A stretch of 64,000 nt of DNA, taken from a virus. Taxonomy: Duplodnaviria > Heunggongvirae > Uroviricota > Caudoviricetes > Straboviridae. Of the stretch, positions 18,683 to 45,371 are shown piece by piece. The DNA lies in the IMG/VR virus record IMGVR_UViG_2974587864_000001; one strand, written 5' to 3'. The notes below the pieces were generated by a model that did no database searches, was not told the origin of the DNA, and was given only the letters and a program-made list of their open reading frames with translations. Every line of letters begins with the position of its first letter. Positions within the stretch are counted from its first letter, which is position 1. Made by a program: the position numbers and the translations under genes.

Positions 18683-18760
18683 GTTCTCGTTCCTTTTGGC
18701 TGTTCCGTTTCGATATGTGTAATATAACAAAGCCCTCACGCGAACGCAAGGGCTTTTTTG
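18683..18760 (-). promoter_or_regulatory. stem-loop + TGTTATATT extended -10 + conserved leader cassette (PeSL-like)
   Basis: minus-strand reading: GCCCTTGCGTTCGCGTGAGGGC-TTTGTTATATTACACATATCGAAACGGAACAG..AAGGAACGAGAAC-ATG. Confidence 0.5.
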
Positions 18761-19858: not shown

Positions 19859-20332
19859 TTAGCCGTCATAACCACCACCGCAACGAACATCACCTTCAAT
19901 GAACAGTTCGCGGTTATCTCTCAGGAGATTGTATTTCTTTTCGAGTTCCGGCCCGAATGCGTCCGCGTCGTCATACCAGTCATAGTTATAACTTCCGGTT
20001 TCCTCGTCGTATTCCGGTTCGTCGCCGCACTCATTGAAGTGAACGATTTTAACATCATCCAGATTCAGTTCTTTCAGCTTGTCCCAGATGCGGGTTATTT
20101 CGACGCTATTACATCCGAACGCTTCCAGTGTGATTGTACCGTCATCATGTACTTGAGGAACACCCCAGCGCGGACGATGATGAATTTCGGTGATCATATC
20201 CATCAGCGATTCAACGTTTGACTCACCGTAAATCTTTGCAACTTCCTGTTCTTTACCAGGGCGGACAAGTCCTATCCCGATAATGAAACTACTGCTTGAG
20301 CTATTGCTCACGAACCCAGAACGGATCTTCAT
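19859..20332 (-). CDS. hypothetical protein, paralog B of MKIRSGFVSNSSSSSF family (157 aa)
   Basis: N-terminal 16 aa identical to product of 23770..24282; last gene of vWA operon. Confidence 0.55.
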   Translation of the reverse strand: MKIRSGFVSNSSSSSFIIGIGLVRPGKEQEVAKIYGESNVESLMDMITEIHHRPRWGVPQVHDDGTITLEAFGCNSVEITRIWDKLKELNLDDVKIVHFNECGDEPEYDEETGSYNYDWYDDADAFGPELEKKYNLLRDNRELFIEGDVRCGGGYDG

Positions 20333-20520
20333 CGCCTTGCCTCGTATTTCGCGTTATCTGCGATTTTCTCATGATACAGGTTGTATGACAACACCAGCGG
20401 GATACAAGCTACTATAAGCCCGATGATAGCCAGTTGATATTCGCGTTTATCGAACGCCATGAATGTAATCGTAGCGCCCAGAATAAACACACCTAACGCA
20501 ATGATGAAGAATAATGTCAT
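20329..20520 (-). CDS. small membrane protein (63 aa, two predicted TM helices)
   Basis: LFFIIALGVFILGATITFMAF ... IIGLIVACIPLVLSY. Confidence 0.5.
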   Translation of the reverse strand: MTLFFIIALGVFILGATITFMAFDKREYQLAIIGLIVACIPLVLSYNLYHEKIADNAKYEARR

Positions 20521-21143
20521 TTTGGCAGGGTATCCATTTCACGAGATTTTGCTTTCAGGATGTCAATCACAGTAGTCATCGCCTGTTCTACATCACCATC
20601 ATAGTGAACCAGGAATGTTTTGTGAAGTCCCATGATCAGACGATTGATGATATAAGCCATTTCTGACGGTAACAGTTTACCATTCTGACGATCGTACTTT
20701 CCAAACAAGCGGTAGAGTTCTGCGCTGTTGCCTGGCTTCTCAATGCTGAAATTATGCATCCCAGACAGAATACCATCCAGATACAGAACAGTTTTGTTAT
20801 CACTACGCAGGTGTCCGCCGACCTTGTAGTAGTTGCTGAATACATACGGTTTTTCGCGGATATCTTCGATATCGAAATCACCATGATCTTCGATGTTGCC
20901 AACATGGGCGAAGAAATGATGATCTTCCAGTTCGAGAAGGATTGCACCCTTTTTGTATGGGAATCCGACTAAATCGATCTGCCAGCCATTTTCACCGACA
21001 AAGACATCATCGACAACCACGAAATCCGGCAGCATAGGCGCGTATGCGTGGTTCTTTTCGTTGTTTTCACGATAGGCTTGTGGTTCGGACAGATACAGGA
21101 TATCGCCTTTTACAACTTCACCCCAGAATACGTTACGTGACAT
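20517..21143 (-). CDS. hypothetical protein (208 aa)
   Basis: ATG 21143 with GAGGAAAATAAT spacing (track start 21182 rejected); directly downstream of vWA gene. Confidence 0.5.
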   Translation of the reverse strand: MSRNVFWGEVVKGDILYLSEPQAYRENNEKNHAYAPMLPDFVVVDDVFVGENGWQIDLVGFPYKKGAILLELEDHHFFAHVGNIEDHGDFDIEDIREKPYVFSNYYKVGGHLRSDNKTVLYLDGILSGMHNFSIEKPGNSAELYRLFGKYDRQNGKLLPSEMAYIINRLIMGLHKTFLVHYDGDVEQAMTTVIDILKAKSREMDTLPK

Positions 21144-21184
21144 ATTATTTTCCTCAATATGCCCCCTTTCGGGGGCGGTCATTG

Positions 21185-23431
21185 TTAGATTTTGACTTCT
21201 TTTTCTTCCAGGACGATTTCACATTCGAATGATGTGGTTTCCCAGACTTTCCAGAAATCGGATGGAATATTATCTTCTTTCGGAAGAATATCTTTTGCAG
21301 CGATAGAAACTTTGGTTTCTTCGAAGTCCAGATCCGCGAACCATGCATGGGCTACTACAACACCGTACATTACGCGACTTAAACGGGCATTCAGTTTACG
21401 GACTTCCTGAATCGTTGCCTTTGTCTGCTTATCAAGATACTCGACTACCTGATCTTTGTCAAGCGCATCCAGTTCAGATTTCACCTGATCGTAAGCCCAC
21501 AGGATAATCAGGTCGCCGTTGTTCAGTTTCTTCTTACCTTCTTCACGCTTCGCGACGGTAGCCGCTACAGCAGGAAGGGAGGAAACACCCTTGATTTTCA
21601 CGTTCAGTTCTTTCGACATGTAAACATCAGTCGATTCTGTGCGCTCAACCTTCGGAGAGAACCCGTAATCACGAATACCCTGTTCAGACAGCCATTCACC
21701 CGCAGCCTCACCAAAGCGCTGTTTCAGCCCTTCTGCGTTGCGCAGTCCGATCGCGTTGTCACGGAAGAACTTCATAACCTTCTGACGGCCTTTCAGGATT
21801 TCCAGACGCACGTTATCAGTCACGAACTCTTTACCGCTTAACCCGCGAGTCATGCCACGGTTAACCAGAGGCAGAGAGGTAAAGTCTACCAGAACCGACA
21901 TACGATCATCACCGATTTTTTCCAGCGGCTTGATAGTCAGGCCAGAAGCACGAAGGTTTTTCAGTGTCGGAATATCGGTTTCCAGCGGCAGAACTTTAAC
22001 GTTCACGATACCATCTTTAACGATGGTGAAGTTACGCACCTGCTTAGTTTCGACTTTTTCCGGCAGACCGAATTCTTTCTGTTTGCTTTCTGGGATAGTC
22101 ACATACCCTTCCAGATCCGTGTTGATGGAAATGTTCGGACGGGAACTGTTACCCACCAGATGTTTAACCGATACTTTGGTTGTGGTTTGGGTAAATTTCG
22201 GTGTCCAGACTTCATGCGCTACCATTTGCGCCGCCAGTGCTTTACGTTCTTCTGGGGTTGCAGCGTTTGCGATCTGTTCGGTCAGTTGATCCAGTGTATC
22301 ATCTTCTTTCTGTACAGTCTGACGGCCTGTGCGGTTATACGCCCAGTGCTCAGAAGACAGGTCGATCACTGTGTCAGTTTGTGCCAGCAGTTCGAGCGCA
22401 TCAACCAGAGTAAACGCGTTTTCGTCTGGAACCATGTTGTAATCAATACCATCAACGAAACGCTGTGATGGATCTACAACAGCCTGTGCAATCAGGTCTT
22501 TCGCGTTGGAGTAGTCCTGTTTGGTAAAGCAGTTGTCATACGCTTTGATCAGACGGACATCACCCAGCTTTTGAAGCACTTTCCATGCCAGATCAGGGTT
22601 CATTGTGTGCAGTGCATGATAAAGCACGACATACAGAACTTGCTGTTCGCTGGCGATGTTCGGATCGAATCCGTCAACATCATTAATCGCGTTTTCACCC
22701 AGCGCCCAGATGTTTTTGATGTGTTCTGGAACCAGCACAACACCGTTTGCAGCGTTCAGGACATACACGCGCCCTTCGTCCAGGTAGATCGCATGGGTAG
22801 CATCAGCAACTTTGACTTCGATACGTGCGGAAGTCTGCGCGGTGATGATTTCGTTAAATGCTGGTTCGTATGCGTCGAAACCTTCAACGAATTTGTGCAA
22901 TGCGTTGGTTGCTTCTGCCATTTTTTCCAGCAGAGGACGGTTTACATAATAACCGTATTCCAGGAACGCGATACTGTTGAAAGTCAGTGGCAGAACCGCA
23001 CACGCTTTCAGAATATCATCGGTACGCCAGCAGTTATCATAACCGTCTGTCAGGAAGATCAGGCTGTTCAGGTTGCCGTTTTCGGATTGCAGGTCGGTAG
23101 CGATTTCCGCAGCCAGATTCAACGGCTCAACAAAGCCAGTGCAACCCGTAGGTTTCAGATAACGGTCGATAGCCGCGCAGATGTTAGACAGGTCAGACAC
23201 ATTGCTAACCTTCTCACCACGGAACACCGTGCCGTAATCGCCTTTGCTGGAGAAGTACAGGATTGAAACGGTATCATCCTGTTTAACCAGACTCGCCAGG
23301 TTTGCTTTCAGATGTTTACGGATCTTAGGCAGTTCGTTATACATTGAACCGGATACGTCACACACGAAAACATGGTTTGTCGGGGTTGGCTTCGATACAG
23401 CGTTTTTGAATTCGATATTTGTGATTGACAT
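21185..23431 (-). CDS. von Willebrand factor A (vWA/MIDAS) domain protein, 748 aa
   Basis: N-terminal VFVCDVSGSMYNELPKI ... DTVSILYFSS ... TGCTGF ... LIFLTDGYDN = DxSxS...T...D MIDAS pattern. Confidence 0.7.
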   Translation of the reverse strand: MSITNIEFKNAVSKPTPTNHVFVCDVSGSMYNELPKIRKHLKANLASLVKQDDTVSILYFSSKGDYGTVFRGEKVSNVSDLSNICAAIDRYLKPTGCTGFVEPLNLAAEIATDLQSENGNLNSLIFLTDGYDNCWRTDDILKACAVLPLTFNSIAFLEYGYYVNRPLLEKMAEATNALHKFVEGFDAYEPAFNEIITAQTSARIEVKVADATHAIYLDEGRVYVLNAANGVVLVPEHIKNIWALGENAINDVDGFDPNIASEQQVLYVVLYHALHTMNPDLAWKVLQKLGDVRLIKAYDNCFTKQDYSNAKDLIAQAVVDPSQRFVDGIDYNMVPDENAFTLVDALELLAQTDTVIDLSSEHWAYNRTGRQTVQKEDDTLDQLTEQIANAATPEERKALAAQMVAHEVWTPKFTQTTTKVSVKHLVGNSSRPNISINTDLEGYVTIPESKQKEFGLPEKVETKQVRNFTIVKDGIVNVKVLPLETDIPTLKNLRASGLTIKPLEKIGDDRMSVLVDFTSLPLVNRGMTRGLSGKEFVTDNVRLEILKGRQKVMKFFRDNAIGLRNAEGLKQRFGEAAGEWLSEQGIRDYGFSPKVERTESTDVYMSKELNVKIKGVSSLPAVAATVAKREEGKKKLNNGDLIILWAYDQVKSELDALDKDQVVEYLDKQTKATIQEVRKLNARLSRVMYGVVVAHAWFADLDFEETKVSIAAKDILPKEDNIPSDFWKVWETTSFECEIVLEEKEVKI

Positions 23432-23770
23432 TTAAATTTTCTCGTATTTGAATTTTTCTAAAATTTCGTTAACTTTATTGCTTACTGCTTCGACTGTACG
23501 ATCACACCCGAACTTACGCGCCAGGAGTTCAACGTATTCATCCATCGTCGTGAGTTTGGATTCTGCAATGTCAAACGCAAGCGCATACATTACTGGATTC
23601 CATACCCGAACGATTTGGAGAGTATACTCGTTCAGTTCAAAACGTTCAAGATATTTTCGCAAAGAAAATACATCAAACGGTGCGGGGCGATCCTGGCTAA
23701 AGGGGATCGAATCCCCTAATGCATAGCGAGGCATAACAACACAGACTTCGGTTTTCAGTTTATTATCCAT
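23432..23770 (-). CDS. hypothetical protein (112 aa)
   Basis: ORF, stop/start overlap with neighbours. Confidence 0.5.
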   Translation of the reverse strand: MDNKLKTEVCVVMPRYALGDSIPFSQDRPAPFDVFSLRKYLERFELNEYTLQIVRVWNPVMYALAFDIAESKLTTMDEYVELLARKFGCDRTVEAVSNKVNEILEKFKYEKI

Positions 23771-24282
23771 CAGTGATGACTCTTTGATGTGTGTTCAAGG
23801 TTACGGAAGATGTTTCCATGTTCCAGTTGAGTTCCGATCGGGCCGCATTCATCGGAGTACGTGAATTCATAGATAAACACGCCGTCCTGATTGCCATACT
23901 TCGCGTTGTACTCTTCATACAACCACATTTTGATCAGAGCGTCTTTCTCTTCTGTTTCCAGATCGTACCAGTCTCGCCCGTCATACGCAAGCGCAATTTG
24001 AGGGTTTGAACGGTAACGGTTTTCCGCGCTTTCTTCGGTTTCCCAGTCATAGCGCTTATCGTCGTAGAACGATTCAAAGCTATTACCCAGATGACCGCCT
24101 AAGTCACGATGAACGTGATTGACCACTTCTTCCGCTGTCAACGGCGGATCGTAGTAACCACAATCAGGGACGCAATCGCCCATCATTTCGCGCAGGTTGT
24201 CGATATTAGTCGGATCTTTCGGGAACCGGACGATGAAACTACTTGATGAACTATTGCTCACAAAACCAGAACGGATTTTCAT
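23770..24282 (-). CDS. hypothetical protein, paralog A of MKIRSGFVSNSSSSSF family (170 aa)
   Basis: N-terminal 16 aa identical to product of 19859..20332. Confidence 0.55.
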   Translation of the reverse strand: MKIRSGFVSNSSSSSFIVRFPKDPTNIDNLREMMGDCVPDCGYYDPPLTAEEVVNHVHRDLGGHLGNSFESFYDDKRYDWETEESAENRYRSNPQIALAYDGRDWYDLETEEKDALIKMWLYEEYNAKYGNQDGVFIYEFTYSDECGPIGTQLEHGNIFRNLEHTSKSHH

Positions 24283-25034: not shown

Positions 25035-25056
25035 GAAAAAAGCCCCTTTCGGGGCT
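25035..25056 (-). terminator. rho-independent terminator (minus strand)
   Basis: GCCCCGAAAGGGGC + TTTTTT on minus strand. Confidence 0.6.
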
Positions 25057-25063
25057 TGATTAA

Positions 25064-25646: not shown

Positions 25647-26183
25647 TCAGTATGCAATGTTTAATTTTGCAAATTTACCAAAATGTTTTATCGCTTCCCG
25701 ATCGTATGCTTTTGCAGCCTCGTATTCATCACGATAGGAACCGATATGTTTAACCTTACCATCAATCTTTATCTGTGCAATGTAACGTATTCCTGTTGGT
25801 TGATTGCGCACACATACACCCTTGAATCGACTGGTTGCTACTTTTCGTTTAGTTCGGTTCTGGCAGTTTCGAGATTGATCCGCTTCACGCAAGTTGTCAA
25901 TCCCGTCGCCAGCCTCAACACCATTTTTGTGATCAATCACATCAGGCAGTTTTCCGGTTGCAACGTAGTATATGATTCGATGACGTAGATAGTTTTTCCC
26001 ATCAACTTTAAGACGGGTATACCCTTCTTTCATCTTCGTGCCTGGTTCAGTACCGACGAGTGTAGATTTCTTGTGTTTAACCCAAACAATCTTACCCGTC
26101 TGTACGTTTACCGCAACGTTTTCAAGAAGGGCATCAATGCCCCTCTTTTCCTCTTCAATTGTTCTTAACCCGTTATGTGACAT
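25647..26183 (-). CDS. HNH homing-type endonuclease with AP2-like DNA-binding domain
   Basis: HNH_3-like DVIDHKNGV...DNLREADQSRNCQN motif; C-terminal FKGVC...IRYIAQIKIDGKVKHIGSYRDEYEAAKAYDREAIKHFG AP2 signature. Confidence 0.75.
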   Translation of the reverse strand: MSHNGLRTIEEEKRGIDALLENVAVNVQTGKIVWVKHKKSTLVGTEPGTKMKEGYTRLKVDGKNYLRHRIIYYVATGKLPDVIDHKNGVEAGDGIDNLREADQSRNCQNRTKRKVATSRFKGVCVRNQPTGIRYIAQIKIDGKVKHIGSYRDEYEAAKAYDREAIKHFGKFAKLNIAY

Positions 26184-27088
26184 AATGCTTTCCTGATTTG
26201 TTTCGCTATGGCTTCGATCACGGGTATTGAAACTGAATTTCCCGCTTGACGATATGCCTGTTTTTTACTATCCGGTATGATAAATGAATCAGGGAATCCC
26301 TGCAAACGAAAACACTCACGGGGAGTAAGTCTTCTGGGGTTCTTTCCTTCCTGCAACACCAGACATTGAACGCCGTCCTTGTAATACTGCTGGGTGATAG
26401 TCCCAGTGTGCGCAGAATCGCTTGTGACGGCCTGATAACCGAAACCCTTACCGTTTGCCTTATTTCGTTCCTTACGCTCTCTAAAGCCTTTCCATGCGTT
26501 ATCTGAGAGGGTGAATGAATCATCAGCATCTTCGAGGATGTCGCCTACTCGCGTAGGGGTGCGCGGGGGAACCGGAAACGAAAAGAACACGTCATCCAGG
26601 AAGCAGACAATAAACACGCGTTCGCGTCTTTGAGGTAGTCCGAAATCCTTTGTGTTCAGACGTTGATAGAATACATTGTATCCTTCGGCCTCCAGAAGCC
26701 CGTAAATCGTTCTGAATGTCTTCCCCTTGTCATGGGTTAGCAGTTCAGGCACGTTCTCAAAAAACAGCACACGGGGCTTTTTAGCGTGTATAATGCGGAG
26801 GATTTCGAAGAACACCGTACCGCGTACATCATCGAATCCCAGTTTCAATCCGGCTTTACTGAACGCCTGACACGGGAACCCCGCCAGCAGGATATCATGA
26901 TCCGGTACTTTGTTTTCATCAATGGCGAATAGATCACCCTGTAGGTTATCATCGCCCCAGTTTTCGATATATGTTTGCTGTGCGAACTTGTCGATTTCAG
27001 ACGTTAAAAGGCATTCGACACCGCCGAACGCCTTATCAAATCCTAATCGAACCCCGCCCACACCAGCGCAGAGGTCAATTATTTTCAT
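26165..27088 (-). CDS. DNA (cytosine-5)-methyltransferase (Dcm-type)
   Basis: motif I DLCAGVGG, motif IV GFPCQAFSKAG, ENV motif, QAGNSV near C-terminus. Confidence 0.85.
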   Translation of the reverse strand: MKIIDLCAGVGGVRLGFDKAFGGVECLLTSEIDKFAQQTYIENWGDDNLQGDLFAIDENKVPDHDILLAGFPCQAFSKAGLKLGFDDVRGTVFFEILRIIHAKKPRVLFFENVPELLTHDKGKTFRTIYGLLEAEGYNVFYQRLNTKDFGLPQRRERVFIVCFLDDVFFSFPVPPRTPTRVGDILEDADDSFTLSDNAWKGFRERKERNKANGKGFGYQAVTSDSAHTGTITQQYYKDGVQCLVLQEGKNPRRLTPRECFRLQGFPDSFIIPDSKKQAYRQAGNSVSIPVIEAIAKQIRKALCHITG

Positions 27089-43927: not shown

Positions 43928-44220
43928 CAGAATGTGATCTCCGCAAACTGCATTCTACGCTCAATCGCATGGATAGCGTTATCACGCTGTTCTTTGTTTT
44001 CATATCCAGCCCAGGTAATCGGGGTTGAACAGATCAGGTGAAAAGTGATTGCTGGGTGTCTCTTCCCTTCAACAACGATTGTTGCATCATCTTCGATCCA
44101 GGTTACATGATCCAGATTCACCGGATAGTTTCTTACGGTAACAGTTTCACCAACCATAGGCGACACATCCAGAATATCACGATCGCGGACATATGATTTA
44201 ATACGAGATACGATTAACAT
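43927..44220 (-). CDS. hypothetical protein (97 aa)
   Basis: ORF. Confidence 0.5.
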   Translation of the reverse strand: MLIVSRIKSYVRDRDILDVSPMVGETVTVRNYPVNLDHVTWIEDDATIVVEGKRHPAITFHLICSTPITWAGYENKEQRDNAIHAIERRMQFAEITF

Positions 44221-45371
44221 TATTTCAACTCCACTGCATATACATCGGTTTCAGGGGCTTTGTGTACGCGCATATCTTTACCACATACCGCATAAGCCGG
44301 ACAATTACGGCAACCGTTATGATCCTTGTTGCCAGTCAGTTCTTTACGGAACTGTTTTGTTTTCGGGTGTTCCCAGATATCCTTCACAAAATCTTCGGCT
44401 TCCAGAACATCCAGACCTTCTTCCCAGCCACCTTCAACCCAACGTTCGGTAAACGAGCAAGGGAAGAACTGACCACGTTCGTTGATGTAAGAGCTAAACA
44501 TCGTCGCTTCACAGTCTTCGGCGTATTGCTTGTACTGTTCGAAGTTCGGGTGTCCCTCCATCGCTTCAACGAAAGCGGGGGCTGAACAGCTATCGAATCC
44601 AAATCCTACACCAGAATCGAGGCAATATTCAACAAGTTTTTTATATTGTTCGCGGGTAACGGTGTCCCAGTTCTTACCGCGTCCTTTTTGTTTCAGTCCC
44701 AGGAACACGATCGCGTTGACTTGTTTCAGGCGCGGATCATTCTTCACGGCATCAACCACGTTAAACGCATCATCATAGGTTTTCGAGCTAACCATGAAGT
44801 GAAGGTTGATTTGCTGTTGTCCGGCTTCTGTCAGGTTCGCTACTGAGTCGAAAGCGACATCAAAACCAGCGTGTTTATAAACCGATACCGCAACAGCCCC
44901 AGCAACCGCCGCTAAACGCGCTGCAACGTCTTTTGATACGTCAGCAATGGTAAGGTTCGGCACAATGCCTTTAGAACGCGCATACGCCATCATATCGAAC
45001 ATATCGGGGTTTGTTTGCCCCTGTGCATCAGCACCGAGTGCGCATTGAGTAAGCCAGGGCATTTTGTCGATGATTTTTTTGAAGTTGGCAAGATCCATGT
45101 TGAACCCGTTCGGGTTATTGGACTTGTAGCAGAACCCGCAGAGTTTACCCGCTGGCCCGTTGCATTTGGTAGTGATCTCGATATCGAGAATTTCGGGGAA
45201 TGGTGCGTATTCTGGATCGTGGGAATATGTTGCACCCCAGCGAGCGAATTCACCAGTATCAACGTTGAAATTATAGTTGTAGAACTTCGAGCGAGCGAAG
45301 CGCATATTGCCGTGTTGATAGATGAACAGGGACGGCGCTTTGATGCTGGTAACGATATCGACAGTTTTCAT
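44220..45371 (-). CDS. radical-SAM-like enzyme with non-canonical CX7CX2C cluster and C-terminal SPASM/twitch-like Cys cluster
   Basis: EITTKCNGPAGKLCGFCY (radical-SAM-like context with 7-residue insert); C-terminal CSF...GCRNCPAYAVC; start set to ATG 45371 just after upstream stop (track start 45488 overlaps neighbour). Confidence 0.45.
   Translation of the reverse strand: MKTVDIVTSIKAPSLFIYQHGNMRFARSKFYNYNFNVDTGEFARWGATYSHDPEYAPFPEILDIEITTKCNGPAGKLCGFCYKSNNPNGFNMDLANFKKIIDKMPWLTQCALGADAQGQTNPDMFDMMAYARSKGIVPNLTIADVSKDVAARLAAVAGAVAVSVYKHAGFDVAFDSVANLTEAGQQQINLHFMVSSKTYDDAFNVVDAVKNDPRLKQVNAIVFLGLKQKGRGKNWDTVTREQYKKLVEYCLDSGVGFGFDSCSAPAFVEAMEGHPNFEQYKQYAEDCEATMFSSYINERGQFFPCSFTERWVEGGWEEGLDVLEAEDFVKDIWEHPKTKQFRKELTGNKDHNGCRNCPAYAVCGKDMRVHKAPETDVYAVELK

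Follow-up and report, generated by a model that had tools for sequence, protein, structure and literature searches.

A conserved N-terminal peptide on diverse small phage proteins is genomically coupled to a radical SAM/SPASM-twitch enzyme family

We have analysed a 64,000-nt stretch of viral DNA (IMG/VR virus record IMGVR_UViG_2974587864_000001; hereafter the window), which is part of the genome of Cronobacter phage vB_CsaM_leE, one of the T4-type myoviruses in the RB43 group (Pseudotevenvirus; 100% identity to KX443552). Two small genes of the window encode proteins that start with the same peptide. Protein A (157 aa; 19859..20332, minus strand) represents a body class ending in ...CGGGYDG, while protein B (170 aa; 23770..24282, minus strand) represents the most widespread body class and matches phrog_7397 with E = 9e-118. 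The first 16 residues of both proteins are MKIRSGFVSNSSSSSF, encoded at 20285..20332 (minus strand) in A and at 24235..24282 (minus strand) in B; a synthetic peptide for this N-terminus would be MKIRSGFVSNSSSSSFIIGIGL. A and B flank a gene for a vWA-domain protein (748 aa; 21185..23431, minus strand; Pfam VWA_3, VWA_2 and VWA above threshold). A predicted radical S-adenosylmethionine (SAM) enzyme of the SPASM(twitch) type is encoded farther away at 44220..45371, also on the minus strand (383 aa from MKTVD; the open frame reaches 45488).

The identity of the two N-termini, on which the original prediction was built, was confirmed and lies far beyond chance, and both open reading frames (ORFs) are present as described. 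After MKIRSGFVSNSSSSSF the two proteins continue with I, then I or V, and diverge: BLASTP found no other significant similarity beyond residue ∼18, and in a profile-profile comparison of the A family with the B family residues 1–37 alone align (probability 98.9%). The DNA strings quoted for the first 48 nt were correct as well. They differ at seven nucleotides, all synonymous, which make up four third-position changes and one Ser codon, AGC versus TCA, a switch between the AGY and TCN families. These synonymous differences, along with free codon use in the wider family (see below), bear out the view that the peptide is conserved as a protein sequence rather than being a DNA repeat of recent origin. 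Motif copies in the whole 181.6-kb phage genome, likewise in the window, are those of A and B only. Neither gene is a pseudogene fragment, a possibility raised at the outset, as both are intact in 174–175 cultured phage genomes and both proteins have confident AlphaFold2 models. The description of both proteins as acidic with Cys pairs stood in its first half (pI 4.49 for A and 4.67 for B); each protein has three Cys residues (positions 74, 102 and 151 in A; 37, 41 and 146 in B), and since these are unconserved in the family alignments, Cys pairs are not a family feature.

An exhaustive search with the B-family profile covered 1.84 billion representative proteins and matched 9,934 clusters (50% identity) with E ≤ 1e-3, 2,080 with E ≤ 1e-10 and 621 with E ≤ 1e-30; in the top representatives, with <50% mutual identity, the peptide always begins at residue 1 and is essentially invariant. 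Word-indexed homolog searches with A reached close relatives only. A degenerate DNA pattern of the peptide found at least 120 stretches in IMG/VR, many with 2–6 tandem copies, and the viral loci from such DNA-pattern scans number in the hundreds, often with arrays of 2–9 motif genes (here and below, figures from the motif-centred and enzyme-centred viral scans are those among the matches listed). In a species-representative genome collection the same motif was present in 93 stretches, almost all of them contigs of metagenome-assembled genomes (MAGs) from very diverse phyla. Judged by these profile and pattern matches, A and B belong to a superfamily that is very large, has no name and resides mostly in phages. 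The prospect, raised with the original prediction, that the peptide might be the start of a widespread family with an assigned function thus turned out to be half right: the family is widespread, and it has no assigned function or name. Searches of open-access literature for the motif string and for phage systems of radical SAM enzymes and substrates found nothing relevant, and the two-component system described below, widespread as it is, is apparently undescribed.

The bodies that follow the peptide are diverse. After removal of the first 20 residues, 216 complete motif ORFs (≥70 aa) from the viral stretches fell into 82 BLAST body clusters, among them Zn-ribbon-like, '...GTRSC', '...GAGRNG' (A-like) and '...EHGxxFR...SHH' (B-like) classes. 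The last residue of the body classes is G in 18.5% of cases (5.9% background) and H in 12% (1.7% background). None of 97 diverse motif representatives matched Pfam, and the same 97 matched phrog_7397 only, via the N-terminus, among the PHROGs. A and B themselves matched nothing meaningful in Pfam, NCBIfam, PADLOC or PDB sequences.

Conservation was assessed in an unbiased set of 583 N-termini collected with a relaxed profile, and the family consensus start is M-K-x-R-x-G-F-V-S-N-S-S-S-S-S-F. N10, S11 and S12 are conserved at 99.7% each; the figures for the preceding residues are 100% (M1), 99% (K2), 99.5% (R4), 96% (G6), 98% (F7), 96% (V8) and 93% (S9, where T or A is tolerated), and for the following ones 92% (S13), 80% (S14), 97% (S15) and 95% (F16), with positions 3 and 5 free. 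A copy on an Agrobacterium plasmid reads MKLKMDFVSNSSSTSF, so that R4 and G6 are changeable while F-V-S-N-S-S-S stays.

Such a constant segment at the very 5′ end of genes, where the motif always stands, might be a nucleic-acid element, with the 48 nt regulating the mRNA or acting as a cassette for recombination, and the peptide a by-product; T4-type genomes do contain shuffling cassettes. However, in 376 distinct genes with the exact motif all six Ser codons occur at every Ser position and all six Arg codons are used, third-position identity is 0.47, and the 48-nt segments average 67% pairwise identity; the seven silent differences between A and B add to this. Selection acts on the peptide, not on the DNA. 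The codon usage effectively refutes the nucleic-acid explanation, to which we assign a negligible probability.

Two side observations concern the genomes that carry motif arrays. Six MAG contigs of 80–250 kb with up to seven motif genes plus the radical SAM gene (L228, L246, L247, L260, L264 and L279), binned as Omnitrophota, Nanoarchaeota, Patescibacteria or 'archaeon', are probably mis-binned large phage genomes. Genes related to nicotinamide adenine dinucleotide (NAD) recur near the arrays in large viral contigs (L018, L043, L059, L085, L112 and others) and encode a NadE-like PP-loop enzyme, a nicotinamidase-like protein, a NAMPT-like phosphoribosyltransferase and a macro domain; leE encodes nicotinate phosphoribosyltransferase-like genes (E_250/251).

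The coupling of motif genes to the enzyme was measured both ways, in motif-centred stretches and in enzyme-centred viral loci with 10-kb flanks. The commonest neighbour in the motif-centred viral stretches, many of which are just 1–8 kb long, is a single radical SAM family (∼345 aa), found in 45 of 120. A hidden Markov model (HMM) built from this recurrent neighbour matches the window enzyme with E = 2e-130, and it also matches contigs L005–L007, the carriers of distant A and B relatives. Seen from the enzyme, motif genes lie within 10 kb in 63 of 78 viral loci (mean 2.9, maximum 9); eight of the 15 loci with no motif gene nearby are RB43-like phages, where the genes are 20–24 kb away, as in the window. 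At the 70 non-RB43 loci every motif gene (195/195) is on the enzyme's strand, and 152 of the 195 are downstream of the enzyme, many starting at its stop codon. No third conserved gene was found at these 70 loci, the next best gene being present at 11. The two viral scans have at least 33 contigs in common.

The same linkage was observed in the other two collections. In cellular genomes and MAGs the enzyme is also encoded on 49 of the 93 motif stretches, each ≤8 kb long. A count over 50,697 cultured-phage records gave 174 with the enzyme, 174 with A and 175 with B, and the breakdown by host genus is the same for all three. As a prediction test we used Vibrio phage D479, one of two distant cultured enzyme matches (54% identity), and the prediction was borne out: five motif genes are located within 10.5 kb upstream of the enzyme gene on the same strand. 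The motif peptide is coupled to one radical SAM/SPASM-twitch family in viral contigs, cellular genomes and cultured phages alike, and this enzyme is the consistent partner of the motif proteins. As a separate observation, six of the 70 enzyme-centred loci (e.g. L162:894-2183) encode a 433-aa protein with an HExxH-type motif (…LMHEADH…), which resembles the metallopeptidase/vWA-like partners of MoxR ATPases and may be a weak echo of the vWA link in the window.

The window enzyme is annotated in the leE record as 'putative radical SAM protein' and matches phrog_7293 (E = 2e-269), a PHROG annotated as 'unknown function'. Its sequence features place it in the radical SAM superfamily. The SAM-cluster motif reads C70-x7-C78-x2-C81, with the CxxC (C78, C81) invariant in the family and the spacing of the first Cys variable (canonical CxxxCxxC in L009, C-x12 in L034); the window enzyme does not pass the cut-off of Pfam Radical_SAM, which homologs in L005, L009 and L263 exceed. 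Assignment to the SPASM/twitch subfamily is likewise indicated by a Pfam SPASM score of 24.5 bits (cut-off 21.5), by partial matches to NCBIfam rSAM_more_4Fe4S (TIGR04085) and N_Twi_rSAM (NF033640), and by an auxiliary-cluster region, C287-x12-G-x4-C305, in a family where C262, C287, C305 and C357 are invariant. The auxiliary domain is closer to twitch, since the full CX2CX5CX3C motif is unconserved. Other matches are weak and partial, to models of radical SAM peptide or protein maturases only. One homolog, on IMG/VR contig 3300005915_000298 (L015:3661-4638), is apparently interrupted by an intein-like insertion (…CSPAGAPVNTPDG … LLVHNC…) that splits the region of the Cys-cluster motif.

In bacterial isolates and plasmids (for example Veillonella parvula, Lachnobacterium bovis, Acetatifactor muris, Oscillibacter sp. 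1-3 and Agrobacterium tumefaciens pAt) a single motif protein is encoded directly upstream of the enzyme. This protein has 131–142 aa and starts with MKIRxGFVTNSSSTSF or with the Agrobacterium form given above. The gene order, which is conserved, is an 850–980-aa protein, a 121–145-aa protein, the motif protein, the radical SAM enzyme and often a ∼310-aa protein, and the operons are found in mobile elements and in defence islands. PADLOC Avs2 models recognise the large protein with E = 1e-17 and, for the SMEK-domain variant, 2e-12; a gene of the metallo-beta-lactamase (MBL) fold that adjoins the bacterial operon matches LmuA/Avs1a. Phages and bacterial operons have only the enzyme and the motif protein in common: no homolog of the small 136–145-aa protein or of the ∼310-aa protein was found in the window or in the phage loci. 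With hmmscan, neither the motif proteins nor their small bacterial neighbour matched DUF6375 (PF19902). In a Sulfuricurvum MAG (L255:2451-5313) the pair of motif and radical SAM genes directly adjoins SIR2-like and HerA genes. SIR2 and HerA form a known antiphage gene pair, and the adjacency suggests that Avs2 is not the only defence system with which the module can associate.

AlphaFold2 models of the two window proteins indicate how the peptide may be placed in the fold. The model of A has a mean predicted local distance difference test (pLDDT) score of 85, with residues 1–11 below 50 and a strand at 12–23; that of B has a mean of 83, with residues 1–10 below 50 and a strand at 13–20. Residues 11–20 are a core beta-strand in both models. 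A strand that starts at S11/S12 and runs to F16, preceded by unplaced residues 1–10, would fit an accessible arm anchored to the fold. No structural neighbour was found for A in PDB or BFVD, nor for B in PDB. In the A family alignment the N-terminus is invariant along with G103-D-E-P, Y115-N-Y and a C-terminal G-x-G-x-x-G; in the B family R4, G6–S14, F16, D144, H155, G156 and F159 are invariant. Distant relatives of B retain, besides the N-terminus, the C-terminal block Y-S-D-E-x-G ... L-E-H-G-N-I-F-R-N ... S-H-H, and the family ranges from 154 to 266 aa owing to a variable middle.

These features could be explained if the motif were a structural nucleus: a small fold that evolves fast would have kept its first strand and loop, and the radical SAM gene would be a frequent neighbour of independent function; possibly the N-terminus makes an active-site or metal/phosphate-binding loop together with the 'strand-S/T/G-D-D/E' element in the middle and the G-rich or His end at the C-terminus. 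Many body classes do have an acidic element in the middle and end in a short stretch rich in Gly or His, D144, E154, H155, R160 and H170 are conserved with the N-terminus in the B family, and the models of A and B both follow a strand-insert-strand-helix-strand order. Still, a purely structural role leaves unexplained the same-strand linkage seen in both directions and in three collections, the outcome for Vibrio phage D479, and the sharing of just this gene pair between phages and bacteria. We give it a low probability as an alternative; it is compatible with modification of the peptide if the modified residue completes the site.

The original prediction had proposed for the N-terminus a packaging or targeting signal, a secretion signal, or a motif binding a common partner such as the vWA protein. 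The last idea holds in part, as the peptide is a protein-level N-terminal module, most plausibly for a common partner, whereas the vWA protein does not fit that part. The vWA gene is flanked by A and B in all RB43-like phages, and vWA homologs are close to motif genes in four of the 120 motif-centred loci, namely three RB43-like loci (L022, L102 and L104) and the jumbo contig L039, where a distant homolog lies 3 kb from the motif genes; a vWA-like DUF2828/DUF7788 gene is near a motif gene in L008. Against this, the vWA gene is absent in 116 of the 120 motif-centred loci and in all 70 enzyme-centred ones. Since the association is restricted to the RB43-like clade (plus L039), we consider the vWA gene as context only.

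Packaging and secretion were not supported by comparison with the family either, in spite of the appeal of a shared N-terminus on different bodies. The capsid targeting sequence (CTS) of T4-type phages fits the peptide poorly: no conserved (L/I)-x-E site for the prohead protease follows the motif, the L30-R31-E32 of B being unconserved in its family. A Sec/Tat signal peptide was rejected, as a conserved hydrophobic h-region is lacking and the peptide is polar, with Ser and Asn at residues 9–15; residues 16–20 form a short strand that in most classes leads into polar residues, and are part of the core sheet in the models. A core strand at residues 11–20, if the models are right, means that the N-terminus is not a detachable tag. 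The genes are located in a minus-strand block opposite the late structural genes, and the motif is present in bacterial chromosomal Avs2-like operons, where virion packaging would be meaningless. A tag on cargo, in any of these three forms, is therefore very unlikely. Because the family travels with the radical SAM enzyme in phages and in Avs2-type operons, the N-terminus is most likely the recognition or modification site of that enzyme and not a packaging or secretion tag.

Several observations touch the neighbourhood of the vWA gene. Tight packing with overlapping start and stop codons suggests that B, the vWA gene and A make a single transcription unit; terminator-like hairpins at 18729–18756 and 25040–25057 (minus strand) bracket the block, and a promoter/terminator scan was uninformative (14 promoter-like sites versus 16 expected). 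In GenBank records PP889458, PV425437 and PQ657795 homologs of A are annotated as 'head-tail adaptor' and the vWA protein as 'minor tail protein', labels apparently propagated from PHROG-based pipelines via a partial match to phrog_132; we rejected the head-tail adaptor identity for A, which gained no support from structure searches. In L008 (3636-5168 and 13589-14510), a contig with a B-like motif gene, the DUF2828/DUF7788 (TROVE/vWA-like) gene is 750 nt upstream of the motif gene, and the contig also encodes major-vault-protein domains (Vault_3, MVP_shoulder), unusual for a phage-like contig. In the window, a 178-aa ORF (25647-26183, minus strand) whose features are HNH-like and AP2-like overlaps a cytosine methyltransferase-like gene (26165-27088) at the latter's 3′ end; the interval differs in the related Klebsiella phage phi1_146002 (L001), and the ORF probably encodes a homing endonuclease.

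We propose that the N-terminus is the element through which A, B and the rest of the family work with their dedicated radical SAM enzyme, and it is reasonably probable that it is modified at or next to N10-S11-S12. The flexible arm made of the first ∼10 residues would enter the enzyme, which would install a radical-mediated post-translational modification at or next to N10-S11-S12, where the arm meets beta-strand 1, and the matured N-terminus would then present a common functional group on many different bodies. We infer three steps: the role of the peptide as substrate, the identity of the modified residue, and the chemistry. Candidate reactions are oxidation of Ser C-beta as in the anaerobic sulfatase-maturating enzyme (anSME), formation of an F7-x-S9 cyclophane of the triceptide kind and, at N10-S11, cross-linking or cleavage.

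The nearest competing explanation is that the N-terminus docks to the enzyme unmodified, while the bodies recruit substrates or regulate as interchangeable specificity subunits. This would equally account for the co-occurrence, the same-strand arrays, the diversity of bodies and the flexible N-terminal arm, and the small accessory protein of the analogous KpAvs2 operon binds its STAND protein (PMC11564622). Docking peptides and the leaders of RiPPs (peptides made on the ribosome and modified after translation), however, would usually be expected to co-vary with the enzyme. Here the peptide is near-invariant, while the enzymes diverge to 36–45% identity, which argues for a chemical constraint more than for mere docking; an invariant run of Ser and Asn would also be expected at a chemical site more often than in a binding epitope. 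We regard docking without modification as unlikely.

A glycyl-radical protein with its activase was tried as an identity for the pair and rejected: R-x-G-F of the motif is one residue shorter than R-V-x-G-[FYW], some members have S, R, C, A or D in place of G6, and the enzyme has a SPASM/twitch domain; a weak partial NrdG match was seen in a single enzyme homolog (L009).

Several points weigh against modification of the peptide. Leader-like recognition with no modification of the motif itself would look identical in the genomes. At seven of the 70 non-RB43 enzyme-centred loci no motif gene lies within 10 kb, and the enzyme gene of the window is not adjacent to A or B but 20–24 kb apart. The enzyme family has no solved relative and matches no characterised maturase family above threshold, so that its chemistry is not inferable by homology.

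As to function, the motif proteins are small, acidic, of early type, diversified in arrays and related to an Avs2 accessory module, which suggests a role in phage–host conflict. One speculative version, rather unlikely in our judgement, is that the phage motif proteins are enzyme-matured mimics or antagonists that silence or decoy Avs2-type STAND receptors, each body being directed at a different host target; the proteins of the arrays would all carry one matured N-terminal 'warhead' and be counterparts of an accessory component of these bacterial receptors. If so, they would make a new class of enzyme-matured anti-defence proteins with a new protein modification. Independent of that version, if a single radical SAM enzyme does mature the constant 16-residue N-terminus, then thousands of dark-matter phage genes would become one system, a protein-level counterpart of RiPP biosynthesis inside viruses, probably with a new post-translational modification. 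The presence of the two-gene module within Avs2-type operons means that the phage arrays would then offer a direct experimental handle on the regulation or evasion of STAND receptors. The system can be tested in culturable phages (leE, RB43, KP15 and Vibrio phage D479), and the finding corrects the propagating 'head-tail adaptor' misannotation of protein A homologs.

Four known kinds of system and one published operon invite comparison. The CTS of T4 internal proteins is a short conserved N-terminal peptide on otherwise unrelated small proteins of T4-type phages, and in this the motif proteins are alike. Their motif has a different sequence with no conserved (L/I)xE, would be part of the fold, is linked to a radical SAM enzyme, and extends far outside T4-type phages and into bacterial operons.

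With anSME and the RiPP maturases our system has in common a single radical SAM enzyme with an auxiliary-cluster domain beside substrate genes that share a short conserved sequence, in an operon-like layout of enzyme followed by array. As anSME oxidises Ser C-beta, chemistry on a Ser-rich target is plausible. In contrast to those systems, the conserved element here is at the extreme N-terminus of folded 90–300-aa proteins with at least 82 unrelated bodies, the motif family is predominantly phage-encoded, and no RiPP recognition element (RRE)/PqqD domain was detected. The anSME system itself was rejected as an identity: no anSME model is among the NCBIfam matches with E ≤ 0.1, and (C/S)-x-(P/A)-x-R is absent from the motif.

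The triceptide enzyme MscB links Phe-C4 to Ser-C-beta at positions i and i+2 (PMC11002830), and FxSxx peptides with radical SAM-SPASM enzymes are reported to be modules of vWA-MoxR (VMAP) conflict systems (PMC7159879). F7-V8-S9-N10-S11 reads as F-x-S-x-x, the F7-V8-S9 triplet being 93–98% conserved, the partner enzyme has a SPASM-type domain, and the genes for A and B flank a vWA gene, though that link is clade-specific. In the published systems short precursors carry the motif at the C-terminus, but here folded proteins carry it at the N-terminus; moreover, the most invariant residues here are N10-S11-S12 and not F-x-S, as S9 can be T or A. The enzyme did not match the FxsB, XyeB or Grr (3-CyFE) models at E ≤ 0.1.

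In the HXS antiphage system the radical SAM enzymes HxsB and HxsC mature the HxS-repeat effector HxsA (PMC13128918). Radical SAM-dependent maturation at a short Ser-containing motif, N-terminal processing and a setting of phage–bacterium conflict are the features of HXS that resemble what we propose. HXS differs in having His-x-Ser repeats, two radical SAM enzymes plus HxsD, and a bacterial periplasmic effector, and no sequence relationship to it was detected.

The KpAvs2 operon combines the Avs2 STAND NTPase with Avap1, a radical SAM protein, and Avap2, a small Avs2-binding protein assigned to DUF6375 by HHpred (PMC11564622). The bacterial operons described here differ in carrying two small genes and a ∼310-aa gene, and DUF6375 was unmatched in them by hmmscan, while the published assignment of Avap2 was made by HHpred. 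In composition, with Avap1 and Avap2 compared by description only, the two are alike: an Avs2-like STAND protein, a radical SAM enzyme and small accessory proteins are present in both.

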